From a virus: 64,000 bases of DNA. The translations under genes and the position numbers were made by a program. The notes below the pieces were generated by a model, which saw only the letters and a list, made by a program, of their open reading frames with translations, did not search any database and was not told the origin of the DNA. Shown here in pieces: positions 1-29,812 of this stretch. Positions within the stretch are counted from its first letter, which is position 1; each line of letters begins with the position of its first letter. The stretch lies in IMG/VR virus record IMGVR_UViG_3300027798_000020, positions 1-64,000 of that record, one strand, 5' to 3'.

Positions 1-12
1 ACCACCAAATAT

Positions 13-86
13 ACCCGGATAGTTAAATGGTATAACAATCGGCTGATAACCGGTCATTACAGGTTCAATTCCTGTTCTGGGTACCA
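13..86 (+). tRNA. tRNA-Ile(GAT)
   Basis: Acceptor acccgga/tctgggt, anticodon arm atcgg-ctGATaa-ccggt, T-loop ttcaatt, encoded CCA. Confidence 0.93.
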
Positions 87-109
87 ATTGTTTTCATAAG
101 TAAATTTAT

Positions 110-135
110 GCACCGTTAGATCAGTTGGTTAGATT
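110..135 (+). pseudogene. 5' fragment (acceptor strand + D arm) of a split tRNA, probably tRNA-Asp
   Basis: gcaccgt-ta-gatc-agttggtta-gatt; gcaccgt is the exact complement of acggtgc at 640-646. Confidence 0.8.
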
Positions 136-163
136 GGCTAAATAAAGTTAGGAGAACTAACCT

Positions 164-547
164 ATGCCAATTGCTAACTGTATTAACTGCGAAAAAGAAT
201 TTAGATGGATGCCATCGCAAAAGTCTGGAAAGTATTGTTGTAGTCCCTGTCAGATTGAACATAGACTAAATGAAGCTATTGCTTCTGGCAATTACACAAA
301 GAACAATGCAAAAACTTACTTTAAACGCAACACGCCATATAAGTGTTCTTGTTGTGGTATAAGCGAGTGGAACGGCAACCCCATCGTTTTACAAATTGAT
401 CATATTGATGGTAATAATTCCAATGATGTGATTGAAAACTATCGTTACTTATGTCCTAACTGTCATACTCAGACTGACACCTGGGGAGTTAAAAATGCCA
501 GTGAAGAAGGTAGGTTGCGAATGAGTAAGAAAAAATTGGTCTCATAG
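164..547 (+). CDS. HNH homing endonuclease-like protein with N-terminal Cys-rich Zn-binding motifs
   Basis: CxxC...CCSxxC N-terminus; CSCC...IDHIDGNNSND...N...LCPNCH HNH signature; AGGAG RBS at 150-154. Confidence 0.9.
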   Translation: MPIANCINCEKEFRWMPSQKSGKYCCSPCQIEHRLNEAIASGNYTKNNAKTYFKRNTPYKCSCCGISEWNGNPIVLQIDHIDGNNSNDVIENYRYLCPNCHTQTDTWGVKNASEEGRLRMSKKKLVS

Positions 548-612
548 TATATCGGTTAGTATAATGGCCTGTCACGCCGTAGGGACGAGTTCGATTCTCG
601 TTGAGACCGCCA
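538..612 (+). tRNA. tRNA-Asp(GTC)
   Basis: Acceptor ggtctca/tgagacc, G73, atggc-ctGTCac-gccgt, CCA; 5' end overlaps the last codons of the HNH ORF. Confidence 0.93.
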
Positions 613-618
613 ATTTTG

Positions 619-650
619 CGCCAGGGGTTCAAGTCCCCTACGGTGCGCCA
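619..650 (+). pseudogene. 3' fragment (T arm + acceptor strand + CCA) of the split tRNA
   Basis: agggg-ttcaagt-cccct T arm, acggtgc, G73, CCA, with no D or anticodon arm directly upstream. Confidence 0.8.
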
Positions 651-653
651 AAT

Positions 654-848
654 CCCGTTAGCACAGAACGTTATCTGTGTCGCTGGCTCGGCGTTATAGG
701 GGCCGGGGGCGGCCAACCGTTAAGAAGGATTCCAAAGACGTAACATGGACTCGAACCGCTGAGTAGAATTGCAACTACGCAGATATCAAAACGCAATGAC
801 AGGGTGTGCAACTCAAGTAAGGGCGACGTGGAAGTTGTAGCTTACACA
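654..848 (+). ncRNA. Structured non-coding RNA (copy A), unknown class
   Basis: GC-rich, multiple hairpins; 5' and 3' modules resemble 5638-5840 with compensatory changes. Confidence 0.65.
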
Positions 849-855
849 GAATAAT

Positions 856-929
856 GTATCTCTAATGTAATGGCAGCATGACAGTCTCCAAAACTGTTCG
901 TCGGGGTTCGAGTCCCTGGAGGTACGCCA
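856..929 (+). tRNA. tRNA-Trp(CCA)
   Basis: acagt-ctCCAaa-actgt, cloverleaf, CCA. Confidence 0.93.
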
Positions 930-934
930 ATAAT

Positions 935-1008
935 GCGGGTATGATGTAATGGTAACCTGAAACCTTGCCAAGGTTTATTCGCGAGTTCGATTCTCGCTAC
1001 CCGCTCCA
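935..1008 (+). tRNA. tRNA-Gly(GCC)
   Basis: aaacc-ttGCCaa-ggttt, U73, CCA. Confidence 0.93.
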
Positions 1009-1069
1009 TTCAAGATTTGTTGACAGCGTTGTATACTAACACTATATAAATGTAAGGAAGGTCTACACT

Positions 1070-1441
1070 ATGTTAAAATCATTTATTAAAGCAAAACTAC
1101 ATCGAGTTGCAGTCACTGATGCCAATTTAAATTATATCGGTAGTATTACTATCGATGAAAAACTAATGAAGGCAGCAGGCATTGAAGCATTTGAATATGT
1201 TCATGTAAATAATCTAAGTAATGCCGCTCATTGGGAAACCTATGTTATTCCCGGCAAGGATGGTGAGATAATTCTCAACGGGCCACCTAGTAGATTATTT
1301 CAACCAAACGATCTTGTAGTGGTACTAAGTATGGTTACACTTCAACCCGGTGAAACTGCAACACATCGAACTGTATTTGTTGATAATCAAAATCACGTCA
1401 CTGAAGTAATGACAGGTGATATTAAATTTGATGCAGTGTAA
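1070..1441 (+). CDS. panD: Aspartate 1-decarboxylase (pyruvoyl-dependent)
   Basis: KLHR..VT.A.LNY.GSITID self-cleavage motif, ETYVI, LNG; typical length. Confidence 0.92.
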   Translation: MLKSFIKAKLHRVAVTDANLNYIGSITIDEKLMKAAGIEAFEYVHVNNLSNAAHWETYVIPGKDGEIILNGPPSRLFQPNDLVVVLSMVTLQPGETATHRTVFVDNQNHVTEVMTGDIKFDAV

Positions 1442-1622
1442 TCATTTAAAAGAGATAGGTTCTAATTACCTATCGCATCTAAAAGTAGCTGTAAAACTAT
1501 CATGCTATAGTTTTATGGCTGCATTAGCTTTTCTTATTCATTCTCTCCTGCCATGTGTATTCACGCACACTGGCAGCAATCTTATTAACCGTGTTCTAGA
1601 GATATTAGAACATAGAAAATAA
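1431..1622 (+). CDS. Small membrane protein (DUF6356-like)
   Basis: HL.E.G..YL.H...A...IH.L.P..F..TGS pattern with one hydrophobic segment. Confidence 0.6.
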   Translation: MQCNHLKEIGSNYLSHLKVAVKLSCYSFMAALAFLIHSLLPCVFTHTGSNLINRVLEILEHRK

Positions 1623-1633
1623 ATTCAATCTTT

Positions 1634-1708
1634 AGTTCCTTAGCTCAGCGGTAGAGCAGTACGTTGACATCGTGAAGGTCACAAGTTCAAACCTTGTAGG
1701 AACTACCA
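1634..1708 (+). tRNA. tRNA-Val(GAC)
   Basis: agttcct/aggaact acceptor, loop ttGACat, CCA. Confidence 0.9.
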
Positions 1709-1715
1709 AACTTTT

Positions 1716-1836
1716 CCCGCTTTGGTGTAATGGTAGCACACGTATATAAAGGTTATCCTGTCAAGGATACAGTCAGCAATATACAACATTCCATGTCAAG
1801 GACGAGATCGTGGTTCGAATCCACGGGGCGGGGCCA
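1716..1836 (+). ncRNA. tRNA-Asp-like RNA with a ~47-nt insertion in the anticodon stem carrying the CAGCAA stem motif
   Basis: Acceptor cccgctt/gggcggg, G73, CCA, D and T arms intact; anticodon stem cgt|cc-atGTCaa-ggacg is interrupted by 1744-1790. Confidence 0.8.
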
Positions 1837-1842
1837 ATCAAT

Positions 1843-1916
1843 GTTGTTCCTAGTGTAGTGGTCGCACAACTGTCTGTGAAACAGTTAGAGAGGGTTCGAT
1901 TCCCCGGTTCAACCCA
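1843..1916 (+). tRNA. tRNA-His(GTG)
   Basis: actgt-ctGTGaa-acagt; G-1:C73 extended acceptor with two U-U mismatches; CCA. Confidence 0.88.
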
Positions 1917-1924
1917 ATTAAATT

Positions 1925-2016
1925 GCCAGCGAGACTTGGAAGTCAGAGAGGTTTTATAAACCTTTTAGCGCCAGATTAGCGTTCTTGAGAGGGTTCGATC
2001 CCCTCCGCTGGTACCA
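1925..2016 (+). tRNA. Atypical tRNA with TAT (Ile) anticodon, long variable arm and minimal D loop
   Basis: gccagcg/cgctggt, gaggt-ttTATaa-acctt, V-arm agcgc/gcgtt, T arm gaggg-ttcgatc-ccctc, CCA. Confidence 0.8.
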
Positions 2017-2194
2017 ATTAAAGATTGTTAATAAAGCGCAATGCCTTGTTAACATTAGTGAAGTATTGCATTTCAAAGTAAGTGTTATCGTACACATCTT
2101 GTACCATAACGCAACATACACCTTCGTACAAACAAAGATGAAAATATAATCCTTGCGGAGTTATGTGTTCGTAAGTCTTCACAAAAATATTTAT

Positions 2195-2271
2195 GCCCCG
2201 TTACGCTAATTGGTAGTGCGGATTCTCTCAAAAGGAGTTGGCTGTCTGTTCGAATCAGACACGGGGTACCA
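2195..2271 (+). tRNA. tRNA with CAA (Leu) anticodon but short variable loop
   Basis: gccccgt/acggggt, attct-ctCAAaa-ggagt, 5-nt variable region, CCA. Confidence 0.85.
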
Positions 2272-2277
2272 CACATT

Positions 2278-2352
2278 CGGGCTTTGGTGAAATGGATATC
2301 ATTTCGGTCTTCGAAACCGACGGTGGGAGTTCGATCCTCTCAAGCCCGGCCA
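2278..2352 (+). tRNA. tRNA-Arg(TCG)
   Basis: tcggt-ctTCGaa-accga, CCA. Confidence 0.92.
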
Positions 2353-2353
2353 T

Positions 2354-2427
2354 GCTCTTATAGGTAAATGGTAGACCGCCTCTTTGGTATGGAGGTAATG
2401 AAAGTTCGATTCTTTCTAAGAGCACCA
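2354..2427 (+). tRNA. tRNA-Thr(GGT)
   Basis: cctct-ttGGTat-ggagg, CCA. Confidence 0.9.
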
Positions 2428-2456
2428 AAATAGTTTAAAAATAGTTCAAAATGTTG

Positions 2457-2485
2457 TTGACAAACAATGTGGTATACTATATAAT
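2457..2485 (+). promoter_or_regulatory. sigma70-type promoter
   Basis: TTGACA-N17-TATAAT perfect consensus. Confidence 0.85.
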
Positions 2486-2491
2486 ACATAC

Positions 2492-2530
2492 ATGCGCTGA
2501 TAAAACAGTTGCATAAAATGTTCTTTAAAA
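2492..2530 (+). promoter_or_regulatory. rrn-like antitermination leader (hairpin + boxA-like)
   Basis: Hairpin 2492-2514 followed by TGTTCTTTAAAA, close to rrn boxA TGCTCTTTAACA. Confidence 0.6.
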
Positions 2531-2545
2531 ATTTAATTTAGCAAT

Positions 2546-2620
2546 GACGCTATCGTCTATCGGTTAGGACACTAGGTTTTCATCCTGGCAAGCGGGGTTC
2601 GATTCCCCGTAGCGTCTCCA
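2546..2620 (+). tRNA. tRNA-Glu(TTC)
   Basis: ctagg-ttTTCat-cctgg, CCA. Confidence 0.92.
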
Positions 2621-2763
2621 TTGTTAAGTGTTATAAGGTATCGTGTAGGGACGCTTACACTATTCGGGTCAAAGCTGCCGGCGACTGATCCTGAAATAAC
2701 TGCATCGGCATTGAGTATGTTTAGCGACTATCTCAGAATTTGCACATAACACTTAACAATGGA
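2617..2763 (+). ncRNA. Structured element closed by an 18-bp perfect inverted repeat
   Basis: tccattgttaagtgttat (2617-2634) / ataacacttaacaatgga (2746-2763), enclosing three hairpins and a possible pseudoknot. Confidence 0.6.
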
Positions 2764-2772
2764 AAGTTTATT

Positions 2773-2856
2773 GCCCAGGTGGTGGAATGGTATACACGGT
2801 GGTCTTAGAAGCCACTGCCGCAAGGATTGAGAGTTCGAGTCTCTCCCTGGGCACCA
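2773..2856 (+). tRNA. tRNA-Leu(TAG)
   Basis: gtggt-ctTAGaa-gccac, variable arm, CCA. Confidence 0.93.
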
Positions 2857-2862
2857 ATATAT

Positions 2863-2951
2863 GGAGATGCGGCTACGATGGTGGAGTGGCCCCGGACTGT
2901 AAATCCGGTACTTAAGAAACGCAATAGGTTCGAATCCTATCATCTCCACCA
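2863..2951 (+). tRNA. tRNA-Tyr(GTA)
   Basis: ccgga-ctGTAaa-tccgg, long variable region, CCA. Confidence 0.92.
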
Positions 2952-2958
2952 GTAATAA

Positions 2959-3048
2959 GGAAGCGTGGCAGAGTCCGGCTTATTGCAACAGTCTTGAAAA
3001 CTGTCGGCTCGAAAGGGTCCGTGAGTTCGAATCTCACCGCTTCCACCA
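2959..3048 (+). tRNA. tRNA-Ser(TGA)
   Basis: acagt-ctTGAaa-actgt, long V arm, CCA. Confidence 0.93.
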
Positions 3049-3053
3049 AACAT

Positions 3054-3138
3054 GCGAGTATGGAGAAATTGGTATACTCAAGAGACTTAAAATCTCTCGT
3101 CGAAAGGCATGCCGGTTCGACCCCGGCTACTCGCACCA
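3054..3138 (+). tRNA. tRNA-Leu(TAA)
   Basis: agaga-ctTAAaa-tctct, V arm, CCA. Confidence 0.93.
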
Positions 3139-3146
3139 TAGTTAAA

Positions 3147-3232
3147 GGAAGACTCCCATAATGGTATTGGAGCGGCTTGCTAAGCCGTCGATCGGCAACG
3201 GTTTCGGGGTTCGAGTCCCCGGTCTTCCGCCA
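3147..3232 (+). tRNA. tRNA-Ser(GCT)
   Basis: gcggc-ttGCTaa-gccgt, V arm, CCA. Confidence 0.92.
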
Positions 3233-3248
3233 CATAAAGGAACGCAAT

Positions 3249-3401
3249 ATGCCAATGTATGAAACAACTGTTAGAACACCACAAGGTGAAGAAAAGAAAA
3301 GAATCTATGCGGATACACCGCAAGAGGCTAAAAAACTTTTTGAACAACTGTATGGTGGACCAAGAGCAGTTCCCTACATTCCACATATTATTCCAAGTTA
3401 G
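3249..3401 (+). CDS. Small hypothetical protein (50 aa)
   Basis: AAGGA RBS then MPMYETTVRTPQGEEKK...; fills the gap between two tRNAs. Confidence 0.7.
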   Translation: MPMYETTVRTPQGEEKKRIYADTPQEAKKLFEQLYGGPRAVPYIPHIIPS

Positions 3402-3407
3402 TATTAT

Positions 3408-3483
3408 TCCCCAGTAGCACAGCGGTAGTTGCACTTGACTGTTAATCAAGGTGTCCGTGGTTCGATCCCACGCTGGGGAGCCA
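3408..3483 (+). tRNA. tRNA-Asn(GTT)
   Basis: cttga-ctGTTaa-tcaag, CCA. Confidence 0.93.
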
Positions 3484-3484
3484 A

Positions 3485-4267
3485 TTAAAAGTAATGTTTG
3501 AGATCGTGTTCCCACATTTGATCTGCAACTATTTTATGAGTTTGAGGTCCGGGGTGCATGTTGTCCCTCCCATTATCAACTTTGTCAGGAAATTTAAAAT
3601 TTATTTTTCTAAAACGTCGATACTTATTAATAAAAGGATCTATTTTAGAATCTTCAACTTTGAGCGACCAAGAACAATAATGAATGTAGGCGTTGTATTT
3701 CTCTGCTAATAAGTCTAGAATACATAAACTACGGTCAGCTTGAAATAGAGCGTTTTGTTCGTCTACTAATAACGGCTCAAAACTTTCGTGCCCGTGGTGT
3801 CCTGGCATCCAGTCAACTATTTCGCCGGACGGTTTGACAATTTGTCTTCTAGTCCAAGGCGGCCGCATAAAGATTATATGACGGGGTCTTATAGCATCAC
3901 CGTGCTCAGATAAAAATGATGCTTGAGTATCTATGCCAGCGGCACCCACTGCAAAGTTCCAGTATGGTATATCCTTGCCTGTTTTTGCTCGAATCTTTTC
4001 AAGTATTTGATAAGCCCAGGTTGCTTCCTTAGGTACTCCTGTACCTTCAGTAAAGCTACATCCAAGAAACAGTATCGGTAAAGGACTAGGTAAATTAAAT
4101 TCGTCACATCTAAATCCGTAACTGTTAAATTGATAACCAAATGAGGTAGGTGTATAAGGATTAGGGCCGTATTGTCCTTCTTCTTTATATGCTTCCAGAT
4201 TATCAGAAGGACACCAGTTAAAATAACAGTTCCTTCGATCGTGTATTCGTCGATTAAAAAATTGCAT
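3485..4267 (-). CDS. SGNH/GDSL-like hydrolase-fold protein
   Basis: FLGCSFTEG block I and C-terminal D..HPG. Confidence 0.6.
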   Translation of the reverse strand: MQFFNRRIHDRRNCYFNWCPSDNLEAYKEEGQYGPNPYTPTSFGYQFNSYGFRCDEFNLPSPLPILFLGCSFTEGTGVPKEATWAYQILEKIRAKTGKDIPYWNFAVGAAGIDTQASFLSEHGDAIRPRHIIFMRPPWTRRQIVKPSGEIVDWMPGHHGHESFEPLLVDEQNALFQADRSLCILDLLAEKYNAYIHYCSWSLKVEDSKIDPFINKYRRFRKINFKFPDKVDNGRDNMHPGPQTHKIVADQMWEHDLKHYF

Positions 4268-4290
4268 CTAATATTTATAAAGGAAAAAAA

Positions 4291-4467
4291 ATGAAACCAA
4301 CTTCAGCGTATAAAATGAGTGGGCTAACTAAAATGATGTTAGCATCCACAGGATTTCGCAATATAGAAGATCGTAATGCATGGAAACGTGCAATGATTGA
4401 AGCAGAACTATCTGCAGAATCTGCACGTAGAACCAATAGTAAAAGTAAAAGTAAAACACCAGAATAA
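4291..4467 (+). CDS. Small hypothetical protein (58 aa, MKPTSAYKMS...)
   Basis: AAGGA RBS, open frame; below the ORF-track length cutoff. Confidence 0.65.
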   Translation: MKPTSAYKMSGLTKMMLASTGFRNIEDRNAWKRAMIEAELSAESARRTNSKSKSKTPE

Positions 4468-4475
4468 ATAGTTGC

Positions 4476-4551
4476 CGCGGGGAGGGTCCGGTCACCAGCG
4501 AGGTCTCATAAGCCTTTGCCGTCCTTGGTTCAAATCCAAGCCCCGCAACCA
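4476..4551 (+). tRNA. tRNA-Met(CAT), initiator-like
   Basis: C1:A72 mismatch, cgcgggg/ccccgca, loop ctCATaa, CCA; lacks the full three G:C anticodon-stem pairs. Confidence 0.82.
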
Positions 4552-4556
4552 GTTTT

Positions 4557-4632
4557 GGGGGTGTAGCTCATTTGGGAGAGCGCCTGCTTTGCAAGCAGGA
4601 TGTAGCAAGTTCGATCCTTGTCACCTCCACCA
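4557..4632 (+). tRNA. tRNA-Ala(TGC)
   Basis: G3:U70, cctgc-ttTGCaa-gcagg, CCA. Confidence 0.94.
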
Positions 4633-4684
4633 CAAACACCATTACACACAATGTATGGTGTGATAAGTAGTGTGTAATAAATTT

Positions 4685-4759
4685 GCCCTTATAGCTCAGT
4701 GGTAGAGCAGCCGCCTTGTAAGCGGCAGGTCCTGTGTTCAAATCATAGTGGGGGCACCA
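4685..4759 (+). tRNA. tRNA-Thr(TGT)
   Basis: gccgc-ctTGTaa-gcggc, CCA. Confidence 0.93.
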
Positions 4760-4774
4760 TTTTAAAGAGTCTTT

Positions 4775-5485
4775 ATGTCAATAACTGTATACTGGGCACC
4801 AAATTACGAATTTGGAAATATTGATTGGAACATGTTGTATGCCGATCCAATAAGTGTATTTGACAAACAGATAGAACAAAAAACAACTGTGGACAAATGG
4901 GACAGTATGTTTTACTGCCCGGCATTTAAAAATCTAACTAAGAATACATTAGAATTTAAAAATCCACTAGCATCCACTTTCCTGTTTGATGAGCAGGGTA
5001 ATGTAACTCCTAGTAAAAATGGTATGACTGCACAAACTGTAAGACAACCTAATATCAAAGATAGGTTCTTACTAGAGTATGGTATTACACCAATTTTCTT
5101 TTCTGATGCAGATATTTCTGTTACAATGACTTCTCCTTGGTTGGAAACGCCACAGTGGGCAAGTCAAGCTAACATTGTGCCAGGAAGATACAATATTGGA
5201 AAATGGTTCCGTGCAGTAAACATCGAGTTTATGATGGGGCAGGGTATTAAAGAACTAACAATTGAAAAAGATGAGCCGTTAGCCTATTTTACGTTTAACA
5301 CCGATGAGCATGTAAAGTTTGTGAGATTTAAAATGGATCCAGAACTACGTAGGTACTCTGTATCCTGTGCAACATCGACTAGTTGGGAACCTTGGATTCC
5401 CTTAGCTGATAGGTACCGCAGATTTCAAGAGTCGAGGATGAGAAGTATAATCTTAAAAAAGATTAAAGAAAATATTGTTGAGTAG
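4775..5485 (+). CDS. Hypothetical protein
   Basis: 236-aa ORF, no recognised motif. Confidence 0.75.
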   Translation: MSITVYWAPNYEFGNIDWNMLYADPISVFDKQIEQKTTVDKWDSMFYCPAFKNLTKNTLEFKNPLASTFLFDEQGNVTPSKNGMTAQTVRQPNIKDRFLLEYGITPIFFSDADISVTMTSPWLETPQWASQANIVPGRYNIGKWFRAVNIEFMMGQGIKELTIEKDEPLAYFTFNTDEHVKFVRFKMDPELRRYSVSCATSTSWEPWIPLADRYRRFQESRMRSIILKKIKENIVE

Positions 5486-5499
5486 CAATTGGAGATAGC

Positions 5500-5637
5500 A
5501 TGAAGATCAAAGAAACTCTCGATAAAGCGTATGGCAACGTACCGCGTGAAACTACAATCCTATTTGATCTTTCGTGGATACAAACTCGAAGCATTAAATA
5601 TTATTGGATAAGATTTAAACGATTATTTACAAGATAA
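5500..5637 (+). CDS. Small hypothetical protein (45 aa)
   Basis: GGAG RBS, MKIKETLDKAYGNVPRET... Confidence 0.55.
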   Translation: MKIKETLDKAYGNVPRETTILFDLSWIQTRSIKYYWIRFKRLFTR

Positions 5638-5840
5638 CCCGGGTTACACTTTGTACTGTTAATTAAAGTGGGTAATTGCCAATACCATAAGAGCACGGCG
5701 CATTGGATCTGCCGCAAGGCCCGCTATATGGGCGACTTGAGAAATCACAAAGGCGGGGACGCTATCCCGTCTAAATGGAAAAGAACGTGGACGGGGTAAC
5801 CACCCAGTCTAGGGCCTATGTGGTGTAGGTAGCTAGACAC
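5638..5840 (+). ncRNA. Structured non-coding RNA (copy B), probable homolog of 654-848
   Basis: Shared 5' cc(g)gtta-cac..gtg hairpin and 3' gacRgggt...gt..ag-gg-[hairpin with gtgg loop]-ag-ct..ac-ac module. Confidence 0.65.
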
Positions 5841-6021
5841 TTTATTAAAACAAACTTAAATCCCTAAAAAGATCAGGTTTGGCATCCCAGTCACTGTGAT
5901 AGGCATAGCCCATATACTTAATACGCCTTAGTTTGTTTTAATAAAGTACATTTAACTTATCTATAAGATAGGTAGGAAGGACAGGGCACCAGCGTTTAGC
6001 AAAAGCCATAAATGTACTTTA
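5839..6021 (+). repeat. Two adjacent elements closed by perfect inverted repeats (18 bp and 13 bp)
   Basis: 5839-5856/5930-5947 and 5942-5954/6009-6021. Confidence 0.75.
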
Positions 6022-6030
6022 CTAAAGTAT

Positions 6031-6104
6031 GCGGGGTTAGTTTAATGGTAAAACAGCAGATTTCCAATCTTCGGTCGAGAGTTCGATTCTCTCACTCCGC
6101 TCCA
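6031..6104 (+). tRNA. tRNA-Gly(TCC)
   Basis: Loop ttTCCaa, U73, CCA. Confidence 0.9.
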
Positions 6105-6118
6105 TTTATTGAGGCAAT

Positions 6119-24070: not shown

Positions 24071-24841
24071 ATGAAAACTATATTCTCCAGTAGCACCAGA
24101 GGTGCCCAACTTTTTCTTATATTTTGTGCGGTTAGCTCTATGTTAGCAATACACCATACTGGATTTAATCTCACCGCAATATTGTTAATTGTGCTAGGCT
24201 ATTTTATTTACGGATGTTTGGGAATTGTAGTAACCTTTCATAGACAACTTACACATCAAAGCTACCAAACTAACTCAGTGCTTACTAAAATTTTTAGTGT
24301 GTTCGGATGTTTGGCAGGCACCGGTAGCGCACTTGCATGGGTAGCTATACATATCAATCATCATCTCAAGAGCGATAAACCTGGAGATCCACATAGCCCA
24401 TTATATAAAGGTTTTAAAATCTTTTCTTTAGACTACGAGACTGATATAAATGTTGATACAAAGTGGCGTATGCGACATCTCATTGTTGATCGCTATCAAC
24501 AATTTTTGCATCGTTATTATTTTATAATATTGATTTGTTGGAGTGGTCTGCTATATGCAATTGGCGGCATATTCTTAGTAGTGTATTTGCACTGGATACC
24601 GGTAGTTATTACTGCCCTTATGAGTAATGTTGTTAATTATGTAGGTCATAGTCCGAGCATGTGGGGAGGCTTTAGGACATATAATTTAAAAGATCAAAGT
24701 TCTAACAATTGGTTATGGGCTATTCCTAGCTGGGGAGAAAGTTGGCATAACAACCATCACAGATATCCTAAGAGTTATACCACTGCGGTTGGAAATCAAA
24801 TAGATATTGCCGGCAGTGTTATTCAACTTATAAAAAAATAA
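24071..24841 (+). CDS. Second membrane fatty acid desaturase
   Basis: HRQLTH, HINHH, DPHSP, GESWHNNHH. Confidence 0.92.
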   Translation: MKTIFSSSTRGAQLFLIFCAVSSMLAIHHTGFNLTAILLIVLGYFIYGCLGIVVTFHRQLTHQSYQTNSVLTKIFSVFGCLAGTGSALAWVAIHINHHLKSDKPGDPHSPLYKGFKIFSLDYETDINVDTKWRMRHLIVDRYQQFLHRYYFIILICWSGLLYAIGGIFLVVYLHWIPVVITALMSNVVNYVGHSPSMWGGFRTYNLKDQSSNNWLWAIPSWGESWHNNHHRYPKSYTTAVGNQIDIAGSVIQLIKK

Positions 24842-29712: not shown

Positions 29713-29812
29713 ACAGATGTGAGTGGAATATGGTAGACCTCCTCCCTTCGGGGAGGGAACGAGGCTTGGTCTTAGACTGCCTTTGTAGGTTCGAATCCTA
29801 CCATCTGTACCA
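29713..29812 (+). ncRNA. tRNA-like RNA lacking a 7-nt anticodon loop (UUCG tetraloop instead)
   Basis: acagatg/catctgt + A + CCA, T arm gtagg-ttcgaat-cctac, cctccc-TTCG-gggagg hairpin, long extra arm. Confidence 0.8.

Follow-up and report, generated by a model that had tools for sequence, protein, structure and literature searches.

Record IMGVR_UViG_3300027798_000020 of the IMG/VR virus collection is a fragment of 111 kilobases (kb), estimated to be 31% complete, from a phage of roughly 350 kb. The window considered here is its first 64 kb (64,000 nucleotides, nt). Positions 1-9300 of the window hold an array of 23 canonical tRNA genes found by ARAGORN. Inside this array, 7 nt after tRNA-Val (1634-1708) and 6 nt before tRNA-His (1843-1915), lies the subject of this work: a gene for a tRNA-Asp(GUC)-like RNA whose anticodon stem is interrupted by an insert. 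The insert bears a short stem and a CAGCAA motif, together called here the handle, and the complete molecule is referred to as a handle-tRNA. Further on, three free RNAs with a handle of their own precede a gene coding for a Ro60-like protein (Table 1).

The RNA presents the conserved elements of a tRNA cloverleaf. U8, A14, G18 and the GUUCRANYC sequence are conserved, covariation supports the acceptor, D and T stems, and U8 and a variable loop of 4 nt can be read by hand. What it lacks is the contiguous anticodon stem of 5 base pairs (bp), split here by 47 nt; the boundary of the insert is ambiguous by one T. The earlier note on this DNA had described an acceptor with G73 and CCA, D and T arms, and an anticodon arm parted by about 47 nt, an anatomy that proves correct to the base. 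Neither ARAGORN nor the Rfam tRNA model (RF00005) calls the gene, even at an expectation value E ≤ 10. Between positions 1600 and 2100, Rfam returns no family beyond the neighbouring tRNAs, at the gathering cut-off as well as at E ≤ 10, and no intron family. Among the identity elements of aspartyl-tRNA synthetase, G73, G10 and the GUC anticodon fit; A at position 38 and the C-G pair 2-71 do not.

Table 1 Coordinates of the handle-tRNA, its parts and its associated genes in the 64,000-nt window.
Feature	Position	Strand	Remark or basis
Handle-bearing tRNA-Asp(GUC)-like RNA gene, 121 nt	1716-1836	+	covariance model R1 score 128 bits
Acceptor stem, 7 bp, two G-U pairs	1716-1722 / 1826-1832	+	all 7 pairs covary in 20 relatives
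D arm, GUGU / AAUGGUA / GCAC	1725-1739	+	normal, covarying stem
Anticodon-stem nt 27-29 (CGU), 5' of the insert	1741-1743	+	pair with 1802-1804
Insert, 47 nt: A-rich linker, handle hairpin, CAGCAA, 3' linker	1744-1790	+	splits the anticodon stem between nt 29 and 30
Handle hairpin: stem UAUCC/GGAUA (1754-1758 / 1765-1769), UGU (1759-1761), linker CAA (1762-1764)	1754-1769	+	
CAGCAA motif	1774-1779	+	9 nt after the closing G of the handle, 4 nt past the hairpin
Remainder of the anticodon arm: CC (1791-1792), loop AUGUCAA (1793-1799), GGACG (1800-1804); anticodon GUC (1795-1797)	1791-1804	+	
T arm, CGUGG / UUCGAAU / CCACG	1809-1825	+	T loop TTCGAAT, normal, covarying stem
G73; encoded CCA	1833; 1834-1836	+	read from sequence
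Canonical tRNA-Asp(GUC) of the same phage	538-612	+	
Three free handle RNAs, 5' G-N8-CAGCAA ... 3' (complement)C-UGU	about 9397-9560, 9568-9795, 9803-9858	+	
Ro60-like protein gene, Pfam DUF2828 + DUF7788	9869-11281	+	Pfam; AlphaFold2 (AF2) model, predicted local distance difference test (pLDDT) 79

The free units at 9397-9858 start with G(G/A)AU-N5-CAGCAA and end with the complementary strand, followed by UGU. The string GGAT-N5-CAGCAA occurs three times in the 111-kb record, always on the + strand, at 1765, 9398 and 9569; its reversed control does not occur at all. Like the free units, the insert of the handle-tRNA has a covarying 5-bp stem closed by the invariant G-C pair, retains UGU, and places CAGCAA 9 nt from the G. 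Its two strands are joined by UGU and CAA, but in the free units they are connected through the RNA body. All that characterizes CAGCAA-handle RNAs at DUF2828 loci is found for 1716-1836: the closing pair, a stem of 5-7 bp, the UGU, the spacing of CAGCAA and the presence of a DUF2828 gene. These sequence features show the arm to be the very handle of the free units with its strands joined at the opposite end, and here our analysis agrees with the earlier note.

The handle is well constrained across phages. In 49 distinct modules its stem has a covariation of 0.527, against 0.16 when shuffled, and none of 500 shuffles scores as high. The five pairs beside the loop covary, one of them being, for instance, CG in 23 modules, UA in 20 and AU in 3. 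The closing C-G is present in 49/49 modules, UGU is nearly invariant, and C, G and C of CAGCAA are invariant. The A-rich linker measures 3 nt in 49 of 51 distinct modules, and the spacer between units of a tandem array 3 nt in giant-virus arrays and 7-8 nt in the window. A second GTC-containing loop, previously pointed out in the insert, is incidental: it consists of the conserved UGU and of the variable 3-nt linker (CAA, UAA, AAA or UUG in relatives). We rejected it as a functional double anticodon.

We scanned sequence collections with exact patterns and built a covariance model, R1, from 20 handle-tRNA members. The pattern ATCCTGT-N3-GGAT-N5-CAGCAA matches 63 stretches of IMG/VR, about 25 of which lie within tRNA-like genes, at the same tRNA position as in 1716-1836. 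Most of the others belong to tandem arrays with units of 64-76 nt in contigs of giant-virus type; there the pattern bridges successive units. A second pattern, CTGT-N3-G-N8-CAGCAA followed after a gap by a T loop, demands no stem complementarity and yields 25 further loci, all with complementary stems of differing sequence. An insert unique to this genome, which would have spoken for a random duplication, is ruled out, since at least 60 phage contigs of IMG/VR, besides cultured phages, have this module at the corresponding site of a tRNA. R1 finds up to five tandem handle-tRNAs in one contig (L101) and two or three in others. Cultured phages have them as well: Vibrio phage nt-1 contains four copies, Synechococcus phage BUCT-ZZ01 two or three and Aeromonas phage Ahp1 one. 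The latter (L114:11731-11847) has the anticodon GUU and the motif CUGCAA, and is labelled 'tRNA-Pseudo' in GenBank; such annotations in cultured phages could flag further members.

Covariation shows that the RNA folds as a cloverleaf with a side arm leaving the anticodon stem between nt 29 and 30. In the alignment of 20 members, 96% of cells are paired and covariation reaches 0.597, compared with 0.18 for shuffled alignments (0/500 as high) and 0.07-0.15 for slid controls. Pair 27-43, across the insert, is CG in 14 members, UG in 3, AU in 2 and UA in 1; pair 28-42 is UA in 9, GC in 6, CG in 2 and UG in 2. Since the pairs bridging the insert covary, the anticodon stem really forms across it. 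A simple parser places an insert of 40-50 nt between nt 29 and 30 in most members.

Two groups of contigs show related arrangements. L101:270-941, in a 120-kb phage contig, comprises five tandem handle-tRNA-like genes with differing handle stems, some with degenerate motifs (CAGCGU, CAGCAC, CAGCAU). Giant-virus-type contigs (L007:12163-13969, L033 and L038:5708-7693) contain tandem handle arrays with a period of 64-76 nt and 3-nt spacers; in their fetched flanks, these arrays divergently adjoin a Ro60-like homologue, 25-27% identical.

The protein encoded downstream of the free units is predicted to have a Ro60 fold. A Foldseek search with its AF2 model returns full-length Ro60 structures as top matches, with E between 3e-9 and 1e-6 and TM of about 0.6. 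They include Ro60 of Thermus phage phiLo, which is the best, Xenopus Ro and Deinococcus Rsr. A sequence search of the PDB with the same protein gave no match; only the fold search worked. Its gene accompanies handle-tRNAs closely. A DUF2828 homologue is encoded in 7/7 handle-tRNA records that are at least 97% complete, compared with a background of 711 among 50,697 cultured-phage records (1.4%), which bears out the earlier proposal that the RNA is a member of a handle-RNA/Ro60-like system. In two record sets, 19/26 and 10/24 of the records with a handle-tRNA also carry the homologue, and all those without it are fragments. Every homologue locus examined is closely preceded, on its own strand, by one to five free handle units. 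The handle-tRNA itself belongs to this upstream RNA array in three contigs, and BUCT-ZZ01 has two handle-tRNAs 177-423 nt after the protein gene.

Phage RNAs of a second topology connect the handle-tRNA to the bacterial Y RNAs of the YrlA type. Felix O1 encodes a 39%-identical homologue of the window protein immediately upstream of its tRNA array. Just after this gene, in gaps of the array, we found four unannotated CAGCAA-handle units (GACC...GGUCUG; NC_005282 23873-24706, that is L129:3220-4053). Three of them are about 60 nt long; the longest, 24581-24706, is tRNA-shaped. In order, its fold comprises a handle stem of 7 bp followed by CAGCAA, then an anticodon-like hairpin and a T arm, next an acceptor stem of 7 bp that a tetraloop seals, and lastly a D arm from which the chain returns to the handle (z = -1.9). 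The 18 nt around the D arm of the handle-tRNA (window 1722-1739) are identical in this RNA. Opening it at the acceptor loop and closing it at the handle gives a sequence that aligns with 1716-1836 over the whole length, with a score of 97.5; shuffles score 58 +/- 6 (maximum 78) and the unpermuted Felix O1 RNA 55. Mycobacteriophage Nicholas (L219:2984-3240) has three handle units after a gene annotated as 'Ro-like RNA binding protein', which end in C-AGU, not C-UGU. The middle one gives a sub-threshold match to Rfam YrlA (37.9 bits, cut-off 69; E 7e-6). In this unit CAGCAA follows the true closing stem, with AGU at its 3' strand, and the Rfam alignment misses both the stem and the motif. The 1716-1836 RNA is therefore the circular permutation of phage YrlA-type RNAs, which have their ends at the handle and a sealed acceptor. 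The analogy with YrlA made in the earlier note is thus reinforced from two sides: the protein model matches full-length Ro60, and both Felix O1 and Nicholas possess the YrlA-topology form with a CAGCAA handle.

Like YrlA (RF02553), the handle-tRNA combines a putative protein-binding stem with a tRNA mimic made of a T arm, a D arm and a 7-bp acceptor-type stem; the helix leaves at the anticodon-stem position, and its gene co-occurs with one for a protein of predicted Ro60 fold, though 8.1 kb apart here. Several traits set it apart. In YrlA it is the Ro-binding stem that brings the two ends together, and a loop caps the acceptor-type stem, whereas 1716-1836 has its ends at the acceptor and a loop-closed handle. 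It also keeps a full anticodon stem-loop with a plausible, fast-changing anticodon, has the motif CAGCAA in place of the bacterial GNCGAA(N)G, and is associated with a protein typed by Pfam as DUF2828, not TROVE. No Rfam YrlA match is found in 1600-2100, even at E ≤ 10. According to Chen et al. 2014 (PMC4201824), RNase P of Mycobacterium smegmatis cuts the acceptor-type stem of YrlA, CCA is added, and neither half is released from Rsr. The gene at 1716-1836 encodes such an open-acceptor state directly, in one chain.

Other known systems are more distant. Thermus phage phiLo encodes a protein with the Ro60 fold and, upstream of its gene, the partner RNAs Yrl1 and Yrl2 (PMC12135203; PDB 9KOP, 9L5Y). 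These are classical stem-bulge-stem Y RNAs with a CGAA motif, in contrast to the handle-tRNA, and no tRNA-shaped, CCA-ended member is described among them. The Class I RNAs of Dictyostelium (RF01414; PMC7919456) share an invariant 5' G, paired with C in a CUGU at the 3' end, and a short terminal stem whose 5' strand is closely followed by ACAGCAA. They are stand-alone amoebal RNAs of 42-65 nt without a tRNA body, and the weak, sub-threshold matches to them fall on free units only. Such a match is the best that Rfam gives for the short free units of the window (9803-9856; E 0.55) and of Felix O1 (L129:3387-3444; E 0.95), and nothing else is returned over 9300-9900. Non-canonical introns of archaea and their permuted or split tRNA genes resemble the handle-tRNA by an intervening sequence in a tRNA stem and by circular permutation; here, however, no bulge-helix-bulge could be drawn and no splicing endonuclease was found in 7 complete genomes, and the permuted partner is a Y-type RNA, not a re-joined tRNA. 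In the literature and in Rfam we found no description of a CCA-ended tRNA with a Ro-type handle in its anticodon stem. Its topology, retained anticodon arm and recognition motif would make it new within tRNA-mimicking Y RNAs.

The anticodon deserves separate attention. GUC is the commonest among members, which also have GUU, CAU, UCU, UCG, UCC, GCC, UUC, GAU, UGU, UUU, GUA, GAA, UAC, GAC and UUA. Between close relatives, 8 of 77 substitutions affect anticodon positions, where 2.5% are expected (p = 8e-4). L004, with GUC, and L034, with UCU, differ by five substitutions, three of which account for this change of triplet on an unchanged Asp-type body with G73. The triplet thus appears to be re-targeted unusually fast with respect to the rest of the molecule. 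The canonical tRNA-Asp of the window makes the handle-tRNA redundant for decoding, and among 18 loci having at least 18 tRNAs, 14 possess a canonical tRNA whose anticodon equals that of the handle-tRNA. Some members have anticodon loops of 8 nt, namely L005, L045 and L127 (nt-1 copy a), with AUGCAUAA, AUUGUCAA and AUUCAUAA. Others combine A34 anticodons with G37 (AUAUGGC, AUAGGGA); both features are unusual for decoding tRNAs. Given that a canonical counterpart is usual and that some loops have 8 nt, the handle-tRNA does not seem to be needed for decoding.

Altogether, we regard it as probable that 1716-1836 is a functional non-coding gene for a Y-RNA-type partner of the Ro60-like protein, its putative ligand, built as a complete tRNA. 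A number of observations weigh against this interpretation. The handle-tRNA of the window lies 8.1 kb from the protein gene, and just 6 of the 33 closest relatives for which long flanks exist have it within 10 kb, so the spacing is not a conserved arrangement. Three near-complete relatives, with proteins 77-93% identical, have no handle-tRNA at all; the RNA is therefore dispensable for the protein. The dependence appears to be one-sided, the handle-tRNA needing the protein and not the reverse. In Felixounavirus Bas63, the Ro60-like gp130 acts against the Ppl defence, and it did so when expressed alone, without phage RNAs (bioRxiv 10.1101/2024.10.10.617714), so the known activity of the protein may not need the handle-tRNA. 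Most members retain a canonical 7-nt anticodon loop with U33 and a purine at 37, as a decoding tRNA would. As for folding, the minimum free energy (MFE) structure of 1716-1836 displays the handle hairpin, but its energy is no better than that of shuffles (z = -0.79), which makes the structural support comparative, not thermodynamic. The same structure contains the outer insert helix GUAUAU/AUAUAC, which competes with pairs 28-29. This helix, put forward in the earlier note, is kept in the closest relatives only, with one compensatory change (GUAGA/UCUAC), and is missing from most others; it stands as part of the predicted fold here and was rejected as a general feature.

Bas63 gp130 would be the same gene as the Felix O1 homologue, judging by genus-wide synteny and not by the Bas63 sequence itself. 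The authors of the Bas63 study guessed that some 'tRNA genes' might be Y RNAs (bioRxiv 10.1101/2024.10.10.617714).

Other explanations of the locus have to be weighed against a Y-RNA-type partner. The gene could specify an ordinary, decoding tRNA-Asp interrupted by a short intron of a novel type: its 47 nt would be excised, the halves ligated to a 74-nt tRNA, and the handle would be a signal for the cutting machinery. With the insert removed in silico, ARAGORN indeed recognises a canonical cloverleaf and reports tRNA-Asp(gtc); covariation extends to the exon-side stem pairs, anticodon loops are canonical in most members, and end-healing-type enzymes are encoded downstream of the Ro60-like gene. 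We consider it unlikely all the same, as the archaeal-type splicing endonuclease (PF01974) occurs in 0/7 complete handle-tRNA genomes and RtcB in 1/7, no bulge-helix-bulge could be drawn from the sequence, and the same handle is found on stand-alone RNAs that are not introns. Neither RtcB, nor an Rnl2-type ligase, nor a splicing endonuclease is encoded in the 111-kb record, which is 31% complete. An intron of the archaeal or eukaryal spliced type accordingly lacks its hallmarks here. An insert of 40-50 nt is also far below the size of group I or II introns. Group I introns of tRNAs have a self-splicing core of about 200 nt or more and usually lie in the anticodon loop; the insert is in the stem at 29/30 and gives no Rfam intron match, and a group I intron is ruled out, as the earlier note had maintained. 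Same-anticodon canonical tRNAs and 8-nt loops speak against splicing too, and the non-permuted forms of Felix O1 and the mycobacteriophage cannot be introns. An exact 24-base pattern, which is a narrow test, retrieved no insert-less copy of the tRNA body from IMG/VR. Alternatively, a decoding tRNA could keep its extra arm and continue its ribosomal work, the arm, with or without the protein, shielding the anticodon arm from host anticodon nucleases. On the ribosome, a 47-nt branch at nt 29/30 should collide with the sites in which the anticodon stem is held. This, the uncoupling of body and anticodon identity (UCU on an Asp-type body with G73) and the 8-nt loops of some members leave it a poor candidate, despite the encoded CCA, G73, intact elbow nucleotides and canonical GUC loop, and despite the ability of phage tRNAs to neutralise tRNA-cutting defences (PMC11464382, PMC11555353).

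The remaining two explanations concern the integrity of the molecule. The activity that makes the ends of free units might cut the handle loop, leaving a tRNA in two pieces that its stems keep together, while the handle takes on the free-end topology. The UGU-NNN-G of the loop resembles the junction between successive tandem units, and YrlA of M. smegmatis likewise exists as two Ro-bound halves (PMC4201824). Such a nuclease is purely hypothetical, however, and the fixed, A-rich linker of 3 nt (49/51 modules) is as compatible with a structured loop as with a cut site, so that we find this scenario very improbable. Finally, the gene could be a tRNA pseudogene in decay, which a duplication or insertion has interrupted by chance. 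Although it is called by neither ARAGORN nor Rfam, although its Ahp1 homologue is labelled 'tRNA-Pseudo' and although the insert loop resembles the anticodon loop (UGUCAA vs AUGUCAA), this is refuted by comparative data, and we give it next to no credence. Dozens of divergent phages conserve the gene with compensatory changes in every stem, the handle included; it co-occurs strictly with DUF2828, and up to five tandem copies are found in one contig (L101).

The surroundings of the handle-tRNA hold two more peculiarities. Within the tRNA array, 275 nt upstream of it, lies a gene for a PanD-family aspartate 1-decarboxylase (1070-1441, + strand; Pfam E 4e-34). Another odd tRNA-like gene, 100 nt long, is found at 29713-29812 (+ strand). 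ARAGORN reads it as tRNA-Arg(tcg), and its acceptor stem, T arm and CCA are normal; its middle consists of a hairpin of 7 bp with a UUCG cap and a long additional segment. Lacking the CAGCAA handle, it is a different kind of RNA. A megablast of the first 12 kb against cultured phages gave tRNA-sized matches only.

We now propose how a handle-tRNA might act as a Y-RNA-type partner. Its 7-bp acceptor stem, G73, encoded CCA and tRNA-like spacing suggest that it would be transcribed as part of the tRNA array and trimmed in the same way as the adjacent tRNAs. The handle, closed by a 3-nt linker in place of RNA ends, would dock the phage Ro60-like ring protein. This docking is suggested by the strict co-occurrence of the two, their adjacency in other phages and the precedent of Ro60 and YrlA. 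The tRNA body would then constitute a second module, with a normal elbow, acceptor end and anticodon loop whose triplet can be re-targeted. In the least certain step, the body may tether the ring to readers of tRNAs or of anticodon loops, candidates being the translation apparatus, enzymes of repair or modification, and defence proteins, among them host anticodon nucleases; alternatively, the body may present itself to the ring. A role in counter-defence is plausible by analogy, because gp130 counters Ppl and phage tRNAs neutralise defences that cut tRNAs. It is possible, if rather doubtful, that handle-tRNAs are programmable baits: with a few substitutions, the anticodon loop would come to mimic the host tRNA that an anticodon nuclease attacks or a defence system senses, and the ring, 4-5 nt from the loop, would capture, block or pass on either the attacker or the cut RNA.

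These genes are missed by tRNA finders or labelled 'pseudo', an annotation that can be corrected. The class is present in phages that can be cultivated, namely Vibrio phage nt-1, Aeromonas phage Ahp1 and Synechococcus phage BUCT-ZZ01, which makes the question directly testable, and its non-permuted form occurs in Felix O1-like coliphages, whose protein already has a counter-defence phenotype. The fast change of the anticodon points to partners that read anticodon loops. Handle-tRNAs still have the free CCA end and the complete anticodon loop that are missing from YrlA, and thereby bear on the role of the tRNA-like module of Y RNAs, a question since 2014. If they do act as baits, the class would be a missing link, in which tRNA-mimicking Y RNAs arose from tRNA genes that gained a Ro-binding handle and were then circularly permuted. 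The permuted and non-permuted forms, taken as a pair, would offer a concrete route from tRNA to Y RNA.
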